Source: an uncultured Nitrospiraceae bacterium (GTDB lineage: Bacteria; Nitrospirota; Nitrospiria; Nitrospirales; Nitrospiraceae). From it: DNA of 64,000 nucleotides. The notes beneath the pieces are model-generated. The model saw nothing but the letters and a program-made list of their open reading frames with translations, made no database searches and had not been told where the DNA came from. The stretch lies in NCBI GenBank assembly GCA_963846575.1, contig CAWJWJ010000002.1, positions 1,568,001 to 1,632,000 on the forward strand, in the 5' to 3' direction. Both the position numbers and the translations under genes were made by a program. Positions within the stretch are counted from its first letter, which is position 1. Each line of letters opens with the position of its first letter. Below, one piece after another: positions 8,779 to 40,077 of this stretch.

Positions 8779-9144
8779 GTGAAGGCACGATACACCGACC
8801 GAAAAACTGTGCAGTGCACGTCCGTATTGTCCTGTGACGGCGTCATGGGACATGGTCAGTTGGTCAATCTTTCAGTGCCTGGATGTTTGCTCAAGAGCGG
8901 CATGAAACTCAAGGTCGGACAGTACATCGAGATGCGGCTCGCATTTGCCAAAGCTCAAAACCCTGTGCAGGTTAAATTAGCTGCCGTGCGCTGGGTGAAC
9001 GGCTGGGAGGCGGGTATCGAGTTTATTCGCATGTCGGAGGTCGACCAGGCTCGGATCAGAGGGTTGGCGGGTGTTATCGACAGACGGACTCCTCAGCACA
9101 CATGGAGTGAGCGGATTATGTGTGTGGGAGTGTCCGCAGGGTAG
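8779..9144 (+). CDS. Single-domain PilZ protein
   Basis: RYTDR (RxxxR) and NLSVPG (NxSxxG), AAVRW...GIEF; AGGAGG RBS. Confidence 0.85.
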   Translation: MKARYTDRKTVQCTSVLSCDGVMGHGQLVNLSVPGCLLKSGMKLKVGQYIEMRLAFAKAQNPVQVKLAAVRWVNGWEAGIEFIRMSEVDQARIRGLAGVIDRRTPQHTWSERIMCVGVSAG

Positions 9145-9168
9145 CGAACCGACATGAATCTGCCGGAG

Positions 9169-9205
9169 GGGCCCGGGGCCATTCGTGCGCCGGGCCCTTA
9201 CTTTT
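9169..9205 (+). terminator. Probable intrinsic terminator after the PilZ gene
   Basis: GGGCCCGG...CCGGGCCC stem followed by TTACTTTT. Confidence 0.55.
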
Positions 9206-9453
9206 TCCAGAGCTTTTCAGCCCGTCTTTCGGTTCATGATTGGGGTGTGGTCGTACAAGTCTCTATCGTTGGATTCTCCGACGGTCACCTTCTGGCTGCT
9301 TCTTGACCCCGCTTGCGACTCTATCCTGAAGGGCACGGGACAGTTCAAGGCCGCTTTCAAGAGGCCCGAGACCAATGGCTCTATGTCCTTTGATCTATAG
9401 ATGATACGCTTTGGGAGTACGTCGGGATAGCCGTGTTAGATAGAAAGGTCAAT

Positions 9454-9831
9454 GTGGCATCCATCCTCGTCATTGATGACAATGCAGCGCTTCGTGAGGT
9501 CCTTCGACTCGGTTTGGAGACTGCCGGCCACAGCGTTCGTGAAATGAGAAATGGTCGGGAGGGAGTCCGTGCATTCCGCAGGGAGCCGTGCGATCTCGTC
9601 ATTACCGATATCTTTATGCCGGACCGAGACGGTTTGGAGTTGATTGAGGCCTTACGAAGGACGCATCCTCAGGTGAAGATCATTGCCATGTCGGGCGCAT
9701 CTGGCACCATGGACTATCTCCCGGTCGCGCGGTCGTTGGGCGCGGCCAGGATCATACGAAAGCCGTTTGCCGTACCGACCATGCTAACCGTGGTTGCCGA
9801 GCTGTTGGGCAGGCAGGTGCCCCCGAAGTGA
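9454..9831 (+). CDS. Single-domain response regulator (receiver only)
   Basis: ILVIDD, ITDIFMPDRDG (phospho-Asp), AMSG and KPF motifs. Confidence 0.9.
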   Translation: MASILVIDDNAALREVLRLGLETAGHSVREMRNGREGVRAFRREPCDLVITDIFMPDRDGLELIEALRRTHPQVKIIAMSGASGTMDYLPVARSLGAARIIRKPFAVPTMLTVVAELLGRQVPPK

Positions 9832-13632: not shown

Positions 13633-14250
13633 ACCGCAAAGCCAGGGTTTCGACGTTCGGTACAGCTGATGTTAGGATTGATAGTCCATATATTCAATGT
13701 GTTACAAGCATCGGTCATTCCGGTGAAGAAATTCATGGGAGAGGTGAAAGGACAAAAAGCAGCTGTCCGGACAGACTGTCTCTCTACGCTGGAAAGAGGC
13801 GTATGCATGAAATGACACGAGGGTGGGGCGAGTGAGTTGCCGCTCTCTGAGTCGGTTGGGAGTGAGGTAATTAACGGGAAGTGAGTGAGTGTGTTATCGA
13901 TAAATTCAGAACGCATCTGTGCATAACTACGCTGGCAATTGCAGCACATTTCGGAGAGTGTACTACGTAGTAGATTATAGGATAGGCAGACCAGGCCGGG
14001 TGAGCTGGTTAGGCCCTATAGAACGACCAAAGAGTCAAGCCGCAAGATATGGGGTGTCAGAATTGAGTCGGCTCAATGCCCAAAAAATGGGCAGTATGGT
14101 AGGCGGCGCGTCTCTAGCACCTGTCAGAGCCTTCGCCGTGCGTTATCAACAGACTTATCCACAAAAATTGTGAACCGCGTAATGTGTTCATTATTGGAAC
14201 GTCAGGGAGGGCTAGGGGCAGCTTCCGGGTTGTCAGATTGACGTCTGGGA

Positions 14251-14934
14251 TCACTTGGTACCCGAACCGACGTCGTCCCGGGGTAAGGTCACCACGATCC
14301 GGCAAGGAGTCGAACTCAAGACATAGGTACCTCCTCGTGCTTCAATGTACTCGCTGGTCAAGAGTCCAAGTGAAGCGGGTGGTTCGTCGTCGCTCGCCAC
14401 AGACACCTTCAGAATAGTCATTTCAACAGTTCCTGGGCCTTCAAGGAGTGTCACCATCCACGCCGCCGATCGATTCAAACCAGAGGCACCAAAGGCCTGT
14501 TCCAATACTCGATACAAGCAGATGGAGGACTGCCGAACGCACTTGATGTCAGGAGGAATCGACCATTTAATCAAGTAGCCATGGTCTTTGGTGAGCCGGT
14601 CCAGGAGCCCCTTTACCGCGATGGGTAATGATAGCTCGACCACTTTTGGGTAGAGACCGAATTCAAGGTCCCGGACCTTCCGTTGGGTCTCGGTAATAGT
14701 CTCCTGTAATGGAGGAATGAGGCTGGCGAGATTCACCGCGTCTCCCGAAAGTTTTTTGAGGAGCATCGCAAGGTGCAATGAAATTAAGGCTAAATTCTGA
14801 CCAATTTGATCATGCAGAGTAAGGGCCACCTCACGTCGCTTCTCTTCGCTCGTCCGCAGCAACGCATGCAGCTCGGACCGCAGGAGGCGACTTTCATCTT
14901 CCTTCATCATGCTCATGTCATCCTTAGCCGGCAT
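14251..14934 (-). CDS. HisKA_3-type histidine-kinase-like protein with degenerate ATPase domain
   Basis: EEKRREVALTLHDQIGQNL H-box, L.P...ELSL..A and LYRVLEQ, but no N-box Asn or DxGxG; no sensor domain. Confidence 0.75.
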   Translation of the reverse strand: MPAKDDMSMMKEDESRLLRSELHALLRTSEEKRREVALTLHDQIGQNLALISLHLAMLLKKLSGDAVNLASLIPPLQETITETQRKVRDLEFGLYPKVVELSLPIAVKGLLDRLTKDHGYLIKWSIPPDIKCVRQSSICLYRVLEQAFGASGLNRSAAWMVTLLEGPGTVEMTILKVSVASDDEPPASLGLLTSEYIEARGGTYVLSSTPCRIVVTLPRDDVGSGTK

Positions 14935-14954
14935 AGCTCAGCCTCTGCATTGCC

Positions 14955-16940
14955 CTAGGCAGAAGCGTCACGATCTTGTATATACGTTGCAAGTAGACGG
15001 TCAAGTGCATCATGGTCGAGTGGTTTGACGAGGTACGCGTCGAACCCGGCGGCCTTCCCGAGGTCCTGATACTCGGCATGTCCATACCCGGAGATCGCGA
15101 TGATGCGGAGAGGACGAATACTCTGACGTTGACGGAGTTGCCGCGCCACCGTAAACCCGTCCATCCCCGGCAGACCAATATCGAGGAGGACCACATGCGG
15201 TTGGAAAGTGGTCGAACGCTCGAGGGCTTCGGTTCCATTCAGGGCGGTCTCTGGCTGATGGCCCGATAGGCTTAACAGCGTGGCAAGTGTCGTGACGAGC
15301 GCAGGATTGTCATCCACGACAAGGATACGCAGGCCGGTCGGTACCTCCTGGGAGGTGGCGGCTGGCGGGAGAGCTTGAGCATCGTCTGGCGGCGATGCCA
15401 GAGGAATCCGCACGACGAATTCGCTCCCTCGTTCCGGCCCGTCGCTTTGTGCGACGATCGATCCATTATGCAGGGCGACGATGCTCCGAACCAAGGTGAG
15501 GCCTATCCCCAGACCACCCTCCGTGCGACTCAGGGATTGGTCGCCTTGCACGAACAGATCGAAAATGTATGGAAGGAGGGTTTCCGGAATTCCGCTCCCC
15601 GTATCCCGAACGGACACCAGCGCATCTTGATGATCCCGCGTCACGCGTAGGGTCACCCGTCCCTGCGGAGCCGTATATTTCCCGGCATTATGGAGAAGAT
15701 TACTGACCACCTGCGCGAATCGGAAGGCATCGGCTTCAACCCATATGGTCTGCGGGGCCACAGTCACTTCAAGATCTATGTCCCGTGAGACGAGAAAGGG
15801 CCTCATGGTGGTGACGGCATGAGACACAATCGTGGATAAGTCCACGCGGCTCGTCGTGAGGCTGATCTTGCCGTGGGTCATGCGGGAGACATCCAGGAGG
15901 TCGTCGATGAGCCGACGCAGATGCCGCAGTTGACCCTCGCCAATGTGACAGGTTTCGGTTGCGATGGAAGGCAGACCGGGGATTTTTTTCAGGACCGCGA
16001 AGGCATTGGCTATCGGCGCCAACGGATTGCGTAACTCATGCGCCAACATGGCCAGATACTCGTCTTTGCGCCGGTTCTCTTCCAATAATCGTTGGGTTTG
16101 TTCCCGCAGAGACTTCTCTAAATTCCGCTGATTCGTCACCTCGTGAAAGACCAGCACGACCCCCTGGATACGTCCCGCCTCATCACGGATCGGCGCCGCG
16201 CCATCGTCGATCGCCACGCTGCTGCCGTTCCTCGAAATGAGCATCGTATGGTTGGCCAGGCCTGTGATGACACCTTCTTGCAAGGTGCGTTGTGCGGGAT
16301 TTCTCACCGGGAGTCCGGTCTCCTCATTCACGATATGGAAAATCGTCTCCAGATCTTGTCCCACAGCGTCCGCCAACGCCCAGCCGGTCAGCACACTGGC
16401 CGTCGGATTCATAAAGACGACGCGCGCGGCCGTATCCGTGGCAATGATGGCATCGCTGATGCTGGAAAGGGTGACATGGAGCCAGCGTTGTTGTTTGGCC
16501 AATTCAGTTTCAGCAGCCCGGCGGAGTTTGATTTCGGTGTTGAGCGCGTCAATCTGCTGTTTCAGGAAGGTGAACTGATTGGCCTCCGAACGGGGGGTCA
16601 GGCGCAAAAGAAGGCCTGTGGGATTGCCATCCTGGGCCGGGGCAAACAGCGCGCCTTCGGATCGAACGTGCCCCTCGTCGCTTCCCAGTGAAGGCAGTTT
16701 GAGTTGTAGCGTTCCGAGTACAAACTGGCGGCTTCTCGCGCAGAGGCCAAGCCATGAATGGATTTCCTCGTCTGATGTGACGACATACCGGGAGAGAGCC
16801 TGCCCCCGTACTTCCTCTGCGCCGCATCCTAGGAGGTCGAGGAAGCGCCGGTTGGCGGCCTGAATGACGCCCTCTCGGGTGACCAACGCGAGTGCTTGGG
16901 GGAATATCTCTGCCCATTGAGAAAACGGCTCCGGTCTCAT
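14955..16940 (-). CDS. Cytoplasmic hybrid sensor histidine kinase (PAS-PAS-HisKA-HATPase-REC)
   Basis: Two PAS-like regions, LAHELRNPL, NLLHNAGKY, DTGSGI, GGLGIGL, and a C-terminal receiver VVDDN...LLDIGLPGMDG...KP. Confidence 0.93.
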   Translation of the reverse strand: MRPEPFSQWAEIFPQALALVTREGVIQAANRRFLDLLGCGAEEVRGQALSRYVVTSDEEIHSWLGLCARSRQFVLGTLQLKLPSLGSDEGHVRSEGALFAPAQDGNPTGLLLRLTPRSEANQFTFLKQQIDALNTEIKLRRAAETELAKQQRWLHVTLSSISDAIIATDTAARVVFMNPTASVLTGWALADAVGQDLETIFHIVNEETGLPVRNPAQRTLQEGVITGLANHTMLISRNGSSVAIDDGAAPIRDEAGRIQGVVLVFHEVTNQRNLEKSLREQTQRLLEENRRKDEYLAMLAHELRNPLAPIANAFAVLKKIPGLPSIATETCHIGEGQLRHLRRLIDDLLDVSRMTHGKISLTTSRVDLSTIVSHAVTTMRPFLVSRDIDLEVTVAPQTIWVEADAFRFAQVVSNLLHNAGKYTAPQGRVTLRVTRDHQDALVSVRDTGSGIPETLLPYIFDLFVQGDQSLSRTEGGLGIGLTLVRSIVALHNGSIVAQSDGPERGSEFVVRIPLASPPDDAQALPPAATSQEVPTGLRILVVDDNPALVTTLATLLSLSGHQPETALNGTEALERSTTFQPHVVLLDIGLPGMDGFTVARQLRQRQSIRPLRIIAISGYGHAEYQDLGKAAGFDAYLVKPLDHDALDRLLATYIQDRDASA

Positions 16941-16947
16941 ATGGCGT

Positions 16948-17475
16948 TCAGCCCTTGTAGTACTCTCGAGCGGTGCCGTCTCCGGTCACAGCGGTAGGTT
17001 TTAGATGCACCACCACGCGACATTCGCCAGCACCTTCCGCAATGGTTTTCTCCAGCACAACCTTGGCATACCCCAGATTCTCGGCGGTAATGCCCCCGAA
17101 TACGTTCGAGGTCATCATGCACAGCGCCTTTTTCCCGATGACCTTATCTCCAAACGGGCAGGCACGATTCCCCAGGACAATCTTGTCCTCATCTTGCTCG
17201 ATGACAAAAAAATCACCTTGAATCCGGCGTTTCAGATCCACCAGGACATCGGACACTTGAGCGGGGTTTAACGAGGACACACCCATGGTGCTTCGGTACA
17301 TGTCGTTGATTTGTTGTCCCATGCGCTGACCGACGACACTCACAAAGCCGGACGCCTCCTGCAATCCCACCACACTGGACAGAGTCCCGGCCAATTCGCT
17401 CAGCAAGGTTCGCAGAAAGACATCCCGTTCGAGCGGAATTTCAGCCATCGGAAGGGGCTTCAATCGTTCAGTCAT
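16948..17475 (-). CDS. Methanogen output domain 1 (MetOD1; V4R-like) protein
   Basis: [50 protein letters not shown]...[25 protein letters not shown]...CRVVV; AGGAGG RBS. Confidence 0.8.
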
Positions 17476-17787
17476 ATCGCCTCCTGTGCCCATGAAGGGG
17501 AGCGGTCGATTGTCGGTTCGCGAGCGTAAATTCAATCGGACAGTGCTTGCCACGATCTGAGCACAAGACTGTCCGTCAGCCTTCAGAACGGCTCTGCGGG
17601 GCAGTGTATCGAGACGGTCCGTCTCATAGCAAACGGGAAGTAATAATCGGCTGGGGGCCTTCGTGATTTTTTCAGGCTTGATGGCGGGAGCCGCTTCCGC
17701 ACCTCCTGCCCGCAGAGTCGGTCAATCGGCCACCTGCTGTCACAGAGAGTGCTGGACCGAATTTTCCAATTAGGCTACTATGTGCAC

Positions 17788-18354
17788 ATGCTTGATCCGC
17801 ACGTCGCTTCTGACCATTCTCACAGCGTCCACTTCTATGCTGACGACGCCGACCTCGAACTACATGTCGCAAAGCATATTCAACGGGGGATTGCAGCAGG
17901 CGAGACTGTCCTGACGATCGCGACCAAGGGACATCGGGAGGGGTTTTCGCACCATCTCCGTGCGGCGTTCCCGGATGTGCCCGGCACGATCAACCTCCTA
18001 TCCTCGTATCGCGCCTTAGATGCAGATGCGGTGCTTTCAAGGTTCCTGATCGATTGCCGGCCCGATCGATCACGATTCTTCAGGACGATGGACGACATCT
18101 TATCCGGGCCGATGCGAGAAGGACGGTCCATCCGCGTATACGGAGAGATGGTGACTCGATTGTGGCAGGCCGGGGCGCCGCAGGCCGCCCTAGAACTCGA
18201 AACGCTGTGGAACGAACTGGCGCTGAAGTATACATTCTCGCTGTTGTGCGCCTATCCGCTTCGTGTCTTTACCGACCAGGACAGCCAGCTCTTTTTAGCC
18301 ACTTGCGCCGCCCATTCCCAGTTGTCTCTTCCACAGGCTCCTGCGACTCGCTAG
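17788..18354 (+). CDS. Stand-alone MEDS-domain protein
   Basis: HSVHFY...G...GE....IAT..H, RVYGEMV..LW..G...AALELE.LWNEL....FSLLCAYP. Confidence 0.82.
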   Translation: MLDPHVASDHSHSVHFYADDADLELHVAKHIQRGIAAGETVLTIATKGHREGFSHHLRAAFPDVPGTINLLSSYRALDADAVLSRFLIDCRPDRSRFFRTMDDILSGPMREGRSIRVYGEMVTRLWQAGAPQAALELETLWNELALKYTFSLLCAYPLRVFTDQDSQLFLATCAAHSQLSLPQAPATR

Positions 18355-18358
18355 CGCC

Positions 18359-18943
18359 ATGCCGCACACAGGCATTAGAGGACTAGACACTCTGCCCTGG
18401 GGGACGCATCTCTGCCTGTTCTATAAATCTGGGATCGAACTCCGGCAATTGCTCACCCCTTATTTCCAAACCGGTTTGGCCGACGGAGAAAGTTGTGTGT
18501 GGGTCACCGGTCCTTCATTCACGGAACAGGAAGTCCTCGACTCCGTGCAGCAGATCCATCCACAGGTATCACACCATCTCGAGACCGGACAGTTGGAAAT
18601 ACTCCCCTATACCGCCTGTCATCTGACTACAGGAATCTTTCGCTCGGAGGCGATGCTCGAGTCATGGTCCTCTAAACTTGAACGGGCCATCGATCGAGGA
18701 TTTTCCGGATTGCGTATTGCAGGAGATACATCCTGGTTGACTTCCAGGGAACAGCGACAGGAGTTTCTCGTGTACGAGAAGCGACTGACTCACGCCGCAT
18801 CCGTCCAGCGGTTACTCACGCTGTGTGCCTATCCAAGCTCGGATTGGGCTCCAGACGAGATGCTCACGGTCATGCAATCCCACGGCTCGGTGTTACTTCC
18901 AGGGAAGGCGGGATGGAAAGCGATCGACGTGCGTTGTGGCTGA
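18359..18943 (+). CDS. Stand-alone MEDS-domain protein (PWGTH subtype)
   Basis: TGI.G...LPWGTHLCLFY, YFQTGL..GE.CVWVT, GFSGLRIAGD..WL, F..YE..L and LCAYP. Confidence 0.85.
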   Translation: MPHTGIRGLDTLPWGTHLCLFYKSGIELRQLLTPYFQTGLADGESCVWVTGPSFTEQEVLDSVQQIHPQVSHHLETGQLEILPYTACHLTTGIFRSEAMLESWSSKLERAIDRGFSGLRIAGDTSWLTSREQRQEFLVYEKRLTHAASVQRLLTLCAYPSSDWAPDEMLTVMQSHGSVLLPGKAGWKAIDVRCG

Positions 18944-19155
18944 GTGAGTCGCTACCAGATTTTCCCTAAGCGCTGTATCTCACGGACTCTCCCTGGGCCA
19001 AAGCCCTGGCCTGGGTCTGATATACTTGCAGCAGGCGGCGTGGATAGGGTAGCTTCGACCCTCAATGATCTGCATGTTGCTCTAGGGCGAACTCTTCGCG
19101 CGGATCCATGCTTACTGGTTCTACGTTCAAGCACTGTGCTTTAGGAGATCCACGG

Positions 19156-19701
19156 ATGGCACGGCACATTGAGAAGGTGACCTCGCAGAAGCACGGATCG
19201 TTTGGAGAGGAGCCGGGGCAGGGGACACCCCCTGAAATCATTGAAGTTGATCAGGCCCAGACAGCGGACGGTCTTTCGGGGATCAGCTGTCCGGTAAACA
19301 AATGCGACGGGCGTCTGAGCGCCGGAGCTTCCGGTTTTGACGCCAGGACCGCGCTGGAGTCCCTGGTGTGCCCACTCTGTGGTCATCGGGGATTACGATC
19401 GCGTGACGGTGTGGTGCTCCTATTTCGAAGCGGATATGAATTCAAGTTTAGTTATGGTCCTTCAGTGCAGACCATTACGATCATTTTGAGTTCAGCTGCG
19501 GTCAATCTGTGGAGCACCCACGACGTCATGGATGATCACCTCGCGAGGGTCGCAGCAGAGTGGGCCCTCCTGTGCGGCCATACCGACAAACAAATCCATC
19601 TGGGGCTACCCGCTGCGGAATTTGCAGATTTTTATCTCTACTTCTGCAAACAAAAAGAGAACCTCCTGAAGCAACCGGCTGGGCGGTCGTCCCGGAGTTG
19701 A
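19156..19701 (+). CDS. Hypothetical protein with probable zinc ribbon
   Basis: CPVNKC...CPLCGH Cys pairs; AGGAG RBS before ATG 19156. Confidence 0.6.
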   Translation: MARHIEKVTSQKHGSFGEEPGQGTPPEIIEVDQAQTADGLSGISCPVNKCDGRLSAGASGFDARTALESLVCPLCGHRGLRSRDGVVLLFRSGYEFKFSYGPSVQTITIILSSAAVNLWSTHDVMDDHLARVAAEWALLCGHTDKQIHLGLPAAEFADFYLYFCKQKENLLKQPAGRSSRS

Positions 19702-38533: not shown

Positions 38534-39092
38534 ATGGGCTTGACTCGAAAACTATTGGGACCCGCGTTTGCAACAATATGGTGTACAGTTTCGCTTTCCG
38601 CATGTGACGAAATCAGGGATTACTTTTCTTCGGTCTCCTTTGTTGAAGTTGCAGCAGAACGAACACGACTCATAGATGGGCTAGAGAGCTACACGAGCAT
38701 TGCTGAGCCCAAAGGCAAACTCCCTACTTGGGATGCTACTGGAGGAGAGCAGTCTCAAGGCGGAAGATAGGCGTCCTCCTTTTAACATCTATAAAATTGC
38801 TGTTCCGAATTACTCTCACTTGGGAGTGTCGGGGGAGTTGCAGGTTCAGTTTTTCAATAACCGGCTTGTAAGCACATGGTTCTACCCTGAGACTTTTGAT
38901 CAGTACATCAAAGTATTCAAAGGCAAGGGTGAGATTACTTTTCCAGAGGGGCGAGAGGGGCCCAAAGAAGCCACGGCGGCTACCTACACACACATTTGGA
39001 CTCATAAGGATTATAAGGGGCACGAATACGTCGCTTGGGAAGATGTGCGTCTTGCACGTGAACTAAGCCTCTGGATCAATCGATACTCATAG
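38534..39092 (+). pseudogene. Frameshifted lipoprotein gene (possible orphan immunity protein)
   Basis: Lipobox SLSAC in ORF 38534-38770; reading continues in the +1 frame (ORF 38700-39092) near 38731-38736; AT-rich; adjacent to an RHS relic. Confidence 0.55.
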
Positions 39093-39100
39093 CTTGGGTT

Positions 39101-39496
39101 CACAGTGCCAGCCATCCGCTGCTGCTAGATCAACAGGCATTTGCCTATGATACGGTGGGGAACCGAACCACCGGTGGTAGTGTGGTCAACCAAGGCAATT
39201 AGCTGACGGCCGATGCGAACTTTGCCTATCAGTACGACGACAATTGGAACCTGACGCGCAAGACGCTGCTCGCCACCGGCAACTGCACGAACTATTTCTA
39301 CGATGCCAAGAATCGGCTAACGCAGGTGCAGGAATTCGTCGCCGGGAATCCCACGGCTGTCACGACGAGCCGCTACCGGTACGATGGCATAGGCCGAAGG
39401 ATCGGAAAAGTCGCCAATGGTCAGACCAAACGGTACATCTACGACGGGGAGGATATTCTCCCGGAGTATGAAGGCGCGAATGTGTCGCAGGCGAGA
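39101..39496 (+). pseudogene. RHS/YD-repeat protein fragment
   Basis: SASHPLLLDQQAFAYDTVGNRT...GN*LTAD..F.YQYDDN.NL..KT...YFYDAKNRL...YRYDGIGRRI.K...YIYDGEDIL; in-frame TAG at 39200; no start codon and no core end. Confidence 0.85.
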
Positions 39497-39798
39497 ACAT
39501 CTCTCTCAATATCGCCTCGCGACGAAGGATCGCCAAAGCCTGCAGCATACTCCAGTTTCACACGGCCGTGGTTTTTGGGGGAGACGCTCCTCGCGCAGCT
39601 TGAGGATGTGACAGGAAGGTTTGCCGACCTCTTCAATCATCACCAAGGCCGTTGTCGTTCCTCTGCCCACGATCAAGGCGAGGCAGAGACAAGAGCACAA
39701 GCCTGTGCCCGTTCCGATCCCCTCTACCGTTCACACAGGGTGACGAGACTGAGTGTCCCCAGTCTCCCTCGTTCGTTTCGGCACAGCGACCTGGATGT

Positions 39799-40077
39799 TT
39801 ATCGGCGTCTTGCCCAGCGGGCCGCGTTTACAGGCCGTGGATTTCTTCCAAGGGAAGTCCGCTGTGCCTTTGATTGTTCACGTGCCGGGGAGGCCTTGAG
39901 ATATTGGGATCTGTACCCGCGCGGAAGCATCCTGCGGGCACGCTCTCGTCTCAGACTAGTGATTAAAATAGTGCCACCTAAGAGCAAGCCCAGGACGCAG
40001 CCGTAAAAGAGGCCCGACGTGAAGGTCAGTGTAAATGGAGACGGAATATAGCGGAGCACTAAGAGAATGTCAGGCAT
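39799..40077 (-). CDS. Small hypothetical protein with one TM segment
   Basis: 92-aa ATG ORF with a hydrophobic stretch then a basic tail; weak support. Confidence 0.3.
   Translation of the reverse strand: MPDILLVLRYIPSPFTLTFTSGLFYGCVLGLLLGGTILITSLRRERARRMLPRGYRSQYLKASPAREQSKAQRTSLGRNPRPVNAARWARRR

Follow-up and report, generated by a model that had tools for sequence, protein, structure and literature searches.

A MetOD1-like protein, a soluble hybrid histidine kinase and a HisKA_3 pseudo-kinase as a candidate accessory sensor system in Nitrospira

A 64,000-nucleotide stretch of contig CAWJWJ010000002.1 from an uncultured Nitrospiraceae bacterium (called the window here; all coordinates refer to it) carries three closely spaced genes on the minus strand, which encode a stand-alone MetOD1-like protein, a soluble hybrid histidine kinase and a HisKA_3-type pseudo-kinase (called the third gene here). 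The MetOD1 open reading frame (ORF; 16948–17475, 175 residues) starts with an ATG five bases after AGGAGG and scores 76.8 bits against the Pfam family PF18546, for which the cut-off is 23.8. The kinase (14955–16940, 661 residues) shows the domain order PAS-PAS-HisKA-HATPase_c-REC by Pfam. The third gene (14251–14934, 227 residues) matches only HisKA_3 in Pfam (32.6 bits); an alternative start at 14916 would give 221 residues and fits the gap of 35–37 bp seen in relatives. The gaps within the trio are 7 bp (kinase/MetOD1) and 20 bp (third gene/kinase). Divergent from it, about 310 bp away, lie two tandem genes for MEDS-only proteins. The highest 19-residue hydropathy window is at most 1.41 across all five proteins, which gives no sign of a membrane helix. 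Among the ORFs between 6 and 27 kb, of which 11 were scanned with Pfam, none was seen to encode a DNA-binding protein. On all these points of layout, the ORF list, Pfam and hydropathy bear out the original prediction, which had been made from the DNA letters alone.

The conserved unit is three genes, not five. MetOD1 occurs in five of the 39 genomes of the genus (five of 61 in a wider draw), and in all five the kinase and then the HisKA_3 protein stand behind it in the same order. Among the matches listed, the closest named relatives of MetOD1, with 81% identity, are labelled Nitrospira, and on this ground the window's genome is treated here as a Nitrospira. Three relatives (G022, G026 and G034) carry the cassette between uvrA and ubiE, and in a fourth (G012) it stands before ubiE, with other genes and pieces of uvrA upstream. 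The window's genome has uvrA and ubiE about 345 bp apart at another site, with no cassette between them; the uvrA/ubiE site is also free of it in G062, G017 and G011. In a gyrB tree (37 of the 39 genomes; G022 and G061 gave no gyrB match), the MEDS pair is limited to one clade. G034 falls in another, beside the cassette-free G011. Because G034 has the cassette without the MEDS pair and sits in this separate clade, the tree (one gene, midpoint-rooted) points to movement of the trio independent of MEDS. A survey of gene neighbourhoods had been proposed to see whether all five genes co-occur: the trio does stay together in five of 39 genomes, whereas the MEDS pair is unlinked elsewhere.

MetOD1 and its partner kinase

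MetOD1 has 7,337 homologues of similar length. The best 80 of at least 545 genome stretches that carry it, whose record titles span what we take to be about nine phyla, show identities of 61–81%. The PAS and coiled-coil module at the start of the kinase (residues 1–150; 16491–16940, minus strand) directly follows MetOD1 in 79 of these 80 loci, from which its profile was partly built. An independent set of metagenome loci (the best 80 of 214, found with a MetOD1 relative as query, none above 71% identity to it) shows the same succession in 76 of 80. The pairing thus holds in 155 of 160 loci, and the remaining five end at a contig edge. In the window's genome, the module is present in a single copy. 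Among 77 downstream ORFs, 13 were duplicated, cut or frameshifted and were left out; the other 64 were scanned together with the window's own kinase. HisKA was found in all 65, HATPase_c in 62, REC in 39 and MEDS in none. The module heads an intact HisKA_3 kinase in five metagenome loci (L216, L248, L250, L256 and L258), and in L258 a receiver gene comes directly after that kinase. MetOD1 can also be part of a longer protein: in nine of 19 long relatives it is fused ahead of a kinase, and some others combine it with LuxR domains or with an anti-sigma GHKL domain (25 proteins surveyed, 19 long and six short, out of 150 distant representatives).

The catalytic residues of the window's kinase are intact (H301, N414, D446-x-G-x-G with G448 and G450, and G476/G478/G480), and D587, S617 and K639 of its receiver are intact in five orthologues. 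Pairwise ratios of nonsynonymous to synonymous substitution rates (dN/dS) among five orthologues are 0.06–0.13 for the kinase and 0.03–0.10 for MetOD1, which is the more conserved of the two. Cys67 of the first PAS domain is present in 114 of 134 partner domains, and only eight have a cysteine at neither position 67 nor 92 (counted in partner domains alone). This conserved cysteine may serve as a partner thiol, or it may just be buried. A complex prediction for MetOD1 with kinase residues 1–150 scored 0.01 against a mark of 0.32. From the near-constant pairing and the fusions we infer that MetOD1 probably binds the kinase, with the first PAS module as the likely docking site, and the proposal that MetOD1 acts in trans on the kinase gains support in this way.

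The placement of MetOD1 also bears on whether it is an input at all. By its score and its three cysteines the window's protein belongs to the MetOD1 family, which PMC5847659 describes from methanogens as a REC-associated output of unknown function (statements on cited works refer, here and below, to the part of each text that was available). Fusion behind REC, the related enzymatic activity suggested in that paper, the name of the family, its likeness to ATC hydrolase and a conservation above that of the kinase would all suit an output or enzyme under kinase control. The bacterial protein studied here is stand-alone (stand-alone forms are also tabulated in PMC5847659, where a V4R-related fold is proposed), has no receiver and precedes a dedicated PAS module, and its fused relatives place MetOD1 at the kinase N-terminus and ahead of LuxR domains, which are input positions. 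We regard an output role as highly improbable.

Accessory sensors encoded next to a kinase are known from other systems. NosP/NahK is an accessory sensor-kinase pair, and it shares with H-NOX/HnoK and the pair described here a layout in which the gene for a free-standing soluble sensor adjoins that for a soluble kinase. The difference from H-NOX/HnoK is that the partner of MetOD1 always begins with one PAS subfamily and that control of the kinase by MetOD1 is a prediction. The MetOD1-kinase pair is common and strongly conserved, yet the literature searched, with most subscription papers outside its reach, gave no description of the bacterial pair and no experiment on it.

Eight Nostoc loci of one clade (L062, L073, L076, L081–L083, L086 and L087) have a FIST (NosP-type) gene upstream of the pair; the three whose gene order was followed run REC-kinase, FIST, kinase, MetOD1, kinase. 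A terpene synthase gene and a P450 gene are divergent in seven Nostoc loci. A 3-kb contig labelled Cryomorphaceae (L061) bears a pair with a kinase start that is nearly that of a Gemmata record (L025), and it may be misbinned.

The cysteines of MetOD1 and a possible metal centre

The three cysteines of MetOD1 that had been read from the sequence are C106, C119 and C152. Their spacing, C106-X12-C119-X32-C152, is kept in 100 of 105 diverse members, and each is nearly invariant (C106 in 101, C119 in 104 and C152 in 104 of the 105). Thr122 is present in 101 of these members and Asn103 in 89. None of the histidines is conserved, the best column reaching 38 of 105. The structure model, with a predicted local distance difference test (pLDDT) score of 94.7, adopts the V4R/H-NOX/Bet3 fold. 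Its best matches among solved structures are the phenol sensors DmpR (Z 14.6, root-mean-square deviation (rmsd) 5.1, 156 aligned) and PoxR (Z 14.4, rmsd 3.5, 151 aligned), followed by Bet3-TPC6B (Z 13.8) and TRAPPC3 (7yh2, Z 12.1). H-NOX structures match with Z 8.1–8.8 (4u99: Z 8.8, rmsd 4.5, 137 aligned). Searches of the Protein Data Bank (PDB) with the MetOD1 sequence and its profile returned nothing below E 0.8.

H-NOX proteins bind heme through a conserved proximal histidine. MetOD1 shares a related fold with them but has no conserved heme histidine, is shorter and spaces its cysteines differently. In a weak alignment, Lys82 takes the place of the H-NOX histidine, and the Pfam family HNOB gave no match to MetOD1 at E 0.1. 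Redox control through cysteine, proposed here for MetOD1, is known in H-NOX: H-NOX proteins inhibit the adjacent kinase, some of them through oxidation of zinc-bound cysteines (PMC12329717).

The C-X12-C spacing reported for SufR (PMC8593673) prompted a comparison with MetOD1. The MetOD1 profile matched that of the SufR C-terminal domain with a probability of 87.6% (E 3.5e-6) over 125 columns, with the three cysteines in register. As controls, XylR-type sensors reached 4.6%, H-NOX 5.6% and 30 column shuffles at most 5.2%. The weak XylR-type alignment pairs two cysteines only, and among the profiles compared SufR alone pairs with all three. SufR binds a [4Fe-4S] cluster through C179, C192, E195 and C220, with Q176 beside the cluster (10.64898/2025.12.26.696629). 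Asn103 of MetOD1 falls at the place of Gln176, and both proteins belong to the TRAPPC3-like fold class. In ArnR, grouped with SufR in COG2345, the cluster reacts with nitric oxide (NO) and the model of the sensor domain is TRAPPC3-like (PMC12343034). MetOD1 differs from SufR in that it has no winged-helix DNA-binding domain (no helix-turn-helix (HTH) was found in it), has threonine in place of the glutamate ligand, is encoded with a kinase, and separates its second and third cysteines by 32 residues, against 27 in SufR numbering. NCBIfam gave MetOD1 no family, and the matches listed for the 105 relatives (25 of 35 families) did not include the SufR model; TIGR02702 had no match in the window's genome. 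The words 'SufR' and 'Nitrospira' are absent from the supplement files of PMC5847659 that were searched. OrpR was considered as an iron-sulfur precedent and dropped, since its cluster sits in a PAS domain (PMC8359166).

Several points weigh against a SufR-type cluster in MetOD1. The profiles were built from small sets (15 cyanobacterial SufR sequences, five XylR-type and nine H-NOX), and the result depends on profile depth, the SufR match dropping to 5.2% with a narrow MetOD1 profile of 66 sequences. The position of the SufR glutamate ligand is threonine in 101 of 105 members; more than 96% of COG2345 have Glu, His, Asn, Asp or Cys at the fourth-ligand position, and the E195D substitution abolishes the SufR cluster (10.64898/2025.12.26.696629). 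The solved structures that match best come from phenol sensors and TRAPP subunits; none is an iron-sulfur protein, SufR not being among the structures compared.

Because threonine replaces the glutamate ligand, a cluster in MetOD1 might have one site left open, or the protein might bind zinc, like the H-NOX proteins that act by cysteine oxidation. Of the cofactors considered, an iron-sulfur cluster is our leading candidate, tentatively held; a zinc or thiol centre is a serious candidate as well, and a cofactor of any other kind is doubtful. V4R sensors of the XylR/DmpR type have a four-ligand zinc site, an E-x-x-C motif and an aromatic pocket. MetOD1 could also be read as controlling the kinase with no iron-sulfur cluster, either as a redox switch of zinc and thiols or as a small-molecule sensor that is structured by zinc. 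Such a reading would fit the top structure matches to DmpR and PoxR, the missing glutamate ligand, the three-cysteine zinc sites through which some H-NOX proteins act (PMC12329717) and the relationship of MetOD1 to V4R, HNOB and ATC hydrolase (PMC5847659). The MetOD1 profile is nevertheless far nearer to SufR than to XylR-type sensors or H-NOX, and SufR alone pairs with all three cysteines; we consider the zinc reading somewhat unlikely. By analogy, the system would work like H-NOX/HnoK with a sensor that is not H-NOX, and the sensor would be SufR-like without being SufR.

The likeness between the MetOD1 and SufR profiles is new. If the metal centre is real, MetOD1 would join the heme-based H-NOX and NosP as a third type of accessory sensor for gas or redox state. 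Nitrospira are nitrifiers that meet NO, nitrite and low oxygen, and MetOD1 would then be a candidate sensor of these in the genus.

The HisKA_3 pseudo-kinase and the proposed relay

The third gene encodes a dimerization and histidine phosphotransfer (DHp) hairpin with H41, D42 and Q46 (DxxxQ), followed by a degenerate GHKL domain. As had been predicted for its ATPase motifs, the N-box asparagine, the D-x-G of G1, most of the ATP lid and G2 are gone, a loss seen in six of six aligned family members. The asparagine and D-x-G are present in all 31 comparison HisKA_3 segments (23 others from the window's genome and eight from other loci). The model has a pLDDT of 72.8, and the closest structures are DosS, VraS and DesK. 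The database holds 13 relatives of similar length, the protein itself included. H41 is kept in all 10 with an intact N-terminus, and the H-box histidine, aspartate and glutamine are kept in every intact copy across identities of 43–93%. The frame is open in all five genomes (one copy is cut by a contig end). The dN/dS of 0.19–0.42 (seven of 10 pairs measurable) indicates purifying selection, and because the values are 0.06–0.13 for the kinase and 0.03–0.10 for MetOD1, the third gene is kept, but loosely.

In DesK and NarX, the histidine carries the phosphate, and a glutamine five positions further along takes part in phosphatase activity, which can do without the histidine (PMC5231405). The anatomy of the third gene resembles that of ChpT and Spo0B, which combine a DHp hairpin bearing a histidine with a GHKL-like domain devoid of ATP motifs. 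Like ChpT, which serves CckA, it has a hybrid kinase as its companion (PMC5231405, PMC4211667). It differs from them in belonging to the HisKA_3 (DesK/NarX) class, in keeping the phosphatase glutamine and in its restriction to one genus in these searches. A ChpT-like role is favoured because the kinase is a hybrid whose receiver is intact (D587), and such a kinase can pass on its phosphate only through a histidine carrier. On balance, we judge a phosphotransfer or phosphatase role of the third gene to be slightly more probable than not. Its place in a relay, also part of the original prediction, is supported indirectly by this anatomy and by a third gene kept in five of five cassettes.

Some observations weigh against a relay role. 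The third gene evolves faster than the kinase and MetOD1, and in the loci searched it stands beside MetOD1 in this genus only. The best 80 of 214 metagenome MetOD1 loci contain no stand-alone pseudo-kinase, and when metagenomes were scanned with the alignment of the pseudo-kinase, not one locus was confirmed. Two database proteins (P0132 and P0133) join a fragment of the kinase receiver to the C-terminal half of the pseudo-kinase, with the histidine region gone; they are either a deletion variant or an assembly artefact. There are 13 Hpt matches in the genome that could relay instead of the third gene, and no conserved target gene was found across 158 MetOD1 loci, which show only clade-level synteny and in which the ORF caller often took antisense frames.

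The third gene could also act by binding only, as a DivL-like reader of a phosphorylated receiver or as a decoy that damps HisKA_3 kinases, or it could be the slowly decaying remnant of a second kinase. DivL is a precedent for a pseudo-kinase whose sole function is to sense a phosphorylated regulator (PMC4211667), the third gene is the fastest-evolving of the trio, and the 23 other HisKA_3-like kinase segments of the genome are possible contacts. In the five metagenome loci mentioned above, the MetOD1 partner is itself an intact HisKA_3 kinase. Unlike the third gene, however, DivL has lost its histidine (PMC4211667), and both the H-box residues kept in every intact copy and the open frames in five of five genomes argue against binding alone or decay; we think this alternative rather unlikely.

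Our best reading of the whole is an H-NOX/HnoK-like accessory sensor with a thiol-metal centre, joined to a ChpT-like relay protein or phosphatase. The three cysteines of MetOD1 would hold a redox- or NO-sensitive metal centre, most likely an iron-sulfur cluster of the SufR type and otherwise zinc. By docking on the kinase's first PAS domain, MetOD1 would tune the autophosphorylation of this soluble hybrid enzyme encoded next to it. The ATP-less HisKA_3 protein would take phosphate from the kinase receiver and either hand it to a regulator encoded elsewhere or remove it from that regulator. Taken together, this explanation is plausible, and we put it forward tentatively. Candidate targets are the 23 LuxR-type HTH matches in the genome. 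A bolder version, which we think unlikely, would make MetOD1 a stand-alone iron-sulfur sensor of the SufR type, in use in about nine bacterial phyla, with the fourth coordination site open. Cys67 of the kinase would complete this site or exchange at it, and the cluster itself would be the switch between sensor and kinase. In Nitrospira the signal would then leave by way of a phosphotransferase that is ChpT-like but arose independently, from the HisKA_3 class.

A third gene that keeps its histidine and DxxxQ and has lost its ATP motifs is new. If the proposed role is true, it would be a relay protein or phosphatase built from a HisKA_3 kinase, for which a targeted literature search gave no precedent. 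Short HisKA_3-only clusters in other phyla are a lead only.

The MEDS pair and the surroundings of the cassette

The first MEDS-only gene (plus strand, start at 17749 or 17788, end at 18354) and the second (18359–18943, plus strand) both pass the PF14417 cut-off of 29.8 bits, with 62.8 and 134.9 bits. With the ATG at 17788, the first begins 312 bp from the MetOD1 start. They form a tandem MEDS-only pair with no kinase adjoining in relatives. The original prediction took ligand binding by MEDS as established, which is too strong: it is itself a prediction, and the domain is tabulated as an inactivated KaiC-like ATPase in PMC5847659.

The pair likely belongs to a separate locus. The block of the two MEDS genes, orf19108 and orf19739, leading onward to comM and clpB, is found in G012, G014, G022 and G026, and the second MEDS gene lies alone at contig ends in G061 and, in part, G017. 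A conserved non-coding stretch (14015–14199, found by blastn and alignment) marks the left edge of the site in the window. The longer interval 13914–14199 is kept at 73–75% in G012, G014 and G062 (L155:9722-9907, L158:11374-11659 and L324:3195-3354), and the stretch lies about 1 kb from orf19108 in G062. The distance from it to the first MEDS gene is 381 bp in G012 and about 3.6 kb here, and because of this difference we place the cassette, in the window's genome only, inside an older locus. The original prediction had also named an orphan receiver as the recipient and glgX and SRPBCC as possible targets. The REC-only gene (9433–9831 by Pfam) keeps its PilZ neighbour in G012, G022 and G026, while in relatives the contigs with glgX and SRPBCC are not those with the cassette. 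All of these, the MEDS pair included, are likely neighbours of an insertion site, and the roles proposed for the receiver and the targets are not supported.

A five-gene system, in which free MEDS proteins act in trans on the kinase or pseudo-kinase and output passes through the REC gene to glgX/SRPBCC, has one pattern to recommend it. The MEDS pair is intact in four of the five cassette genomes, and within its clade it is frameshifted in G014, interrupted by a stop in G017 and missing in G062, all free of the cassette. Since the pair is limited to this one gyrB clade, kinship accounts for most of the overlap, and the damage amounts to at most two independent losses, with assembly errors possible. 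The pair adjoins the cassette in the window's genome only (none of the four cassette-bearing relatives shows linkage), and G034 has the cassette with no pair at the MEDS site. MEDS genes are present in 23 of the 39 genomes, but a MEDS profile with Nitrospira seeds matched none of 84 genome and one of 80 metagenome MetOD1 loci (one of 164 in all), where flanks of more than 2 kb upstream and 3 kb downstream were available for 58 and 31 of the two 80-locus sets, and none of the 65 partner kinases has a MEDS domain. With the REC, glgX and SRPBCC genes also apart from the cassette in relatives, we consider the five-gene system improbable, and a functional link between MEDS and the cassette equally so.

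The window's genome has other MEDS-only genes ahead of kinase genes (G000:C1:831316-832011 and C1:945946-946617), a point in favour of free MEDS subunits as such. One stands just ahead of a HisKA_3 kinase and the other ahead of an alpha/beta-hydrolase and a PAS kinase; we take the hydrolase to be RsbQ-like. These genes suit the idea of a free MEDS subunit better than the window's pair does.

The GC content of the cassette, overall and at third codon positions (GC3), is similar to that of its neighbours. Rfam gave zero matches across 8–21 kb of the window, and promoter and terminator scans of the locus were at or below chance. Within the non-coding stretch, two 9-mers at 14143 and 14155 presumably resemble DnaA boxes. 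The ORF orf19108 (19108–19701) is rich in cysteine, matches no Pfam family above cut-off and has a paralogue elsewhere in the genome; it is present at the same site in 10 of 10 relatives inspected, and its first 20 or so residues may precede the true start. The PilZ and REC-only genes of the window (8779–9831) also adjoin in G012, G022 and G026, and the genome has about 15 PilZ-like matches. A low-GC stretch at 38700–40006, between metabolic and flagellar genes, contains an ORF that we take to resemble an RHS-repeat fragment.

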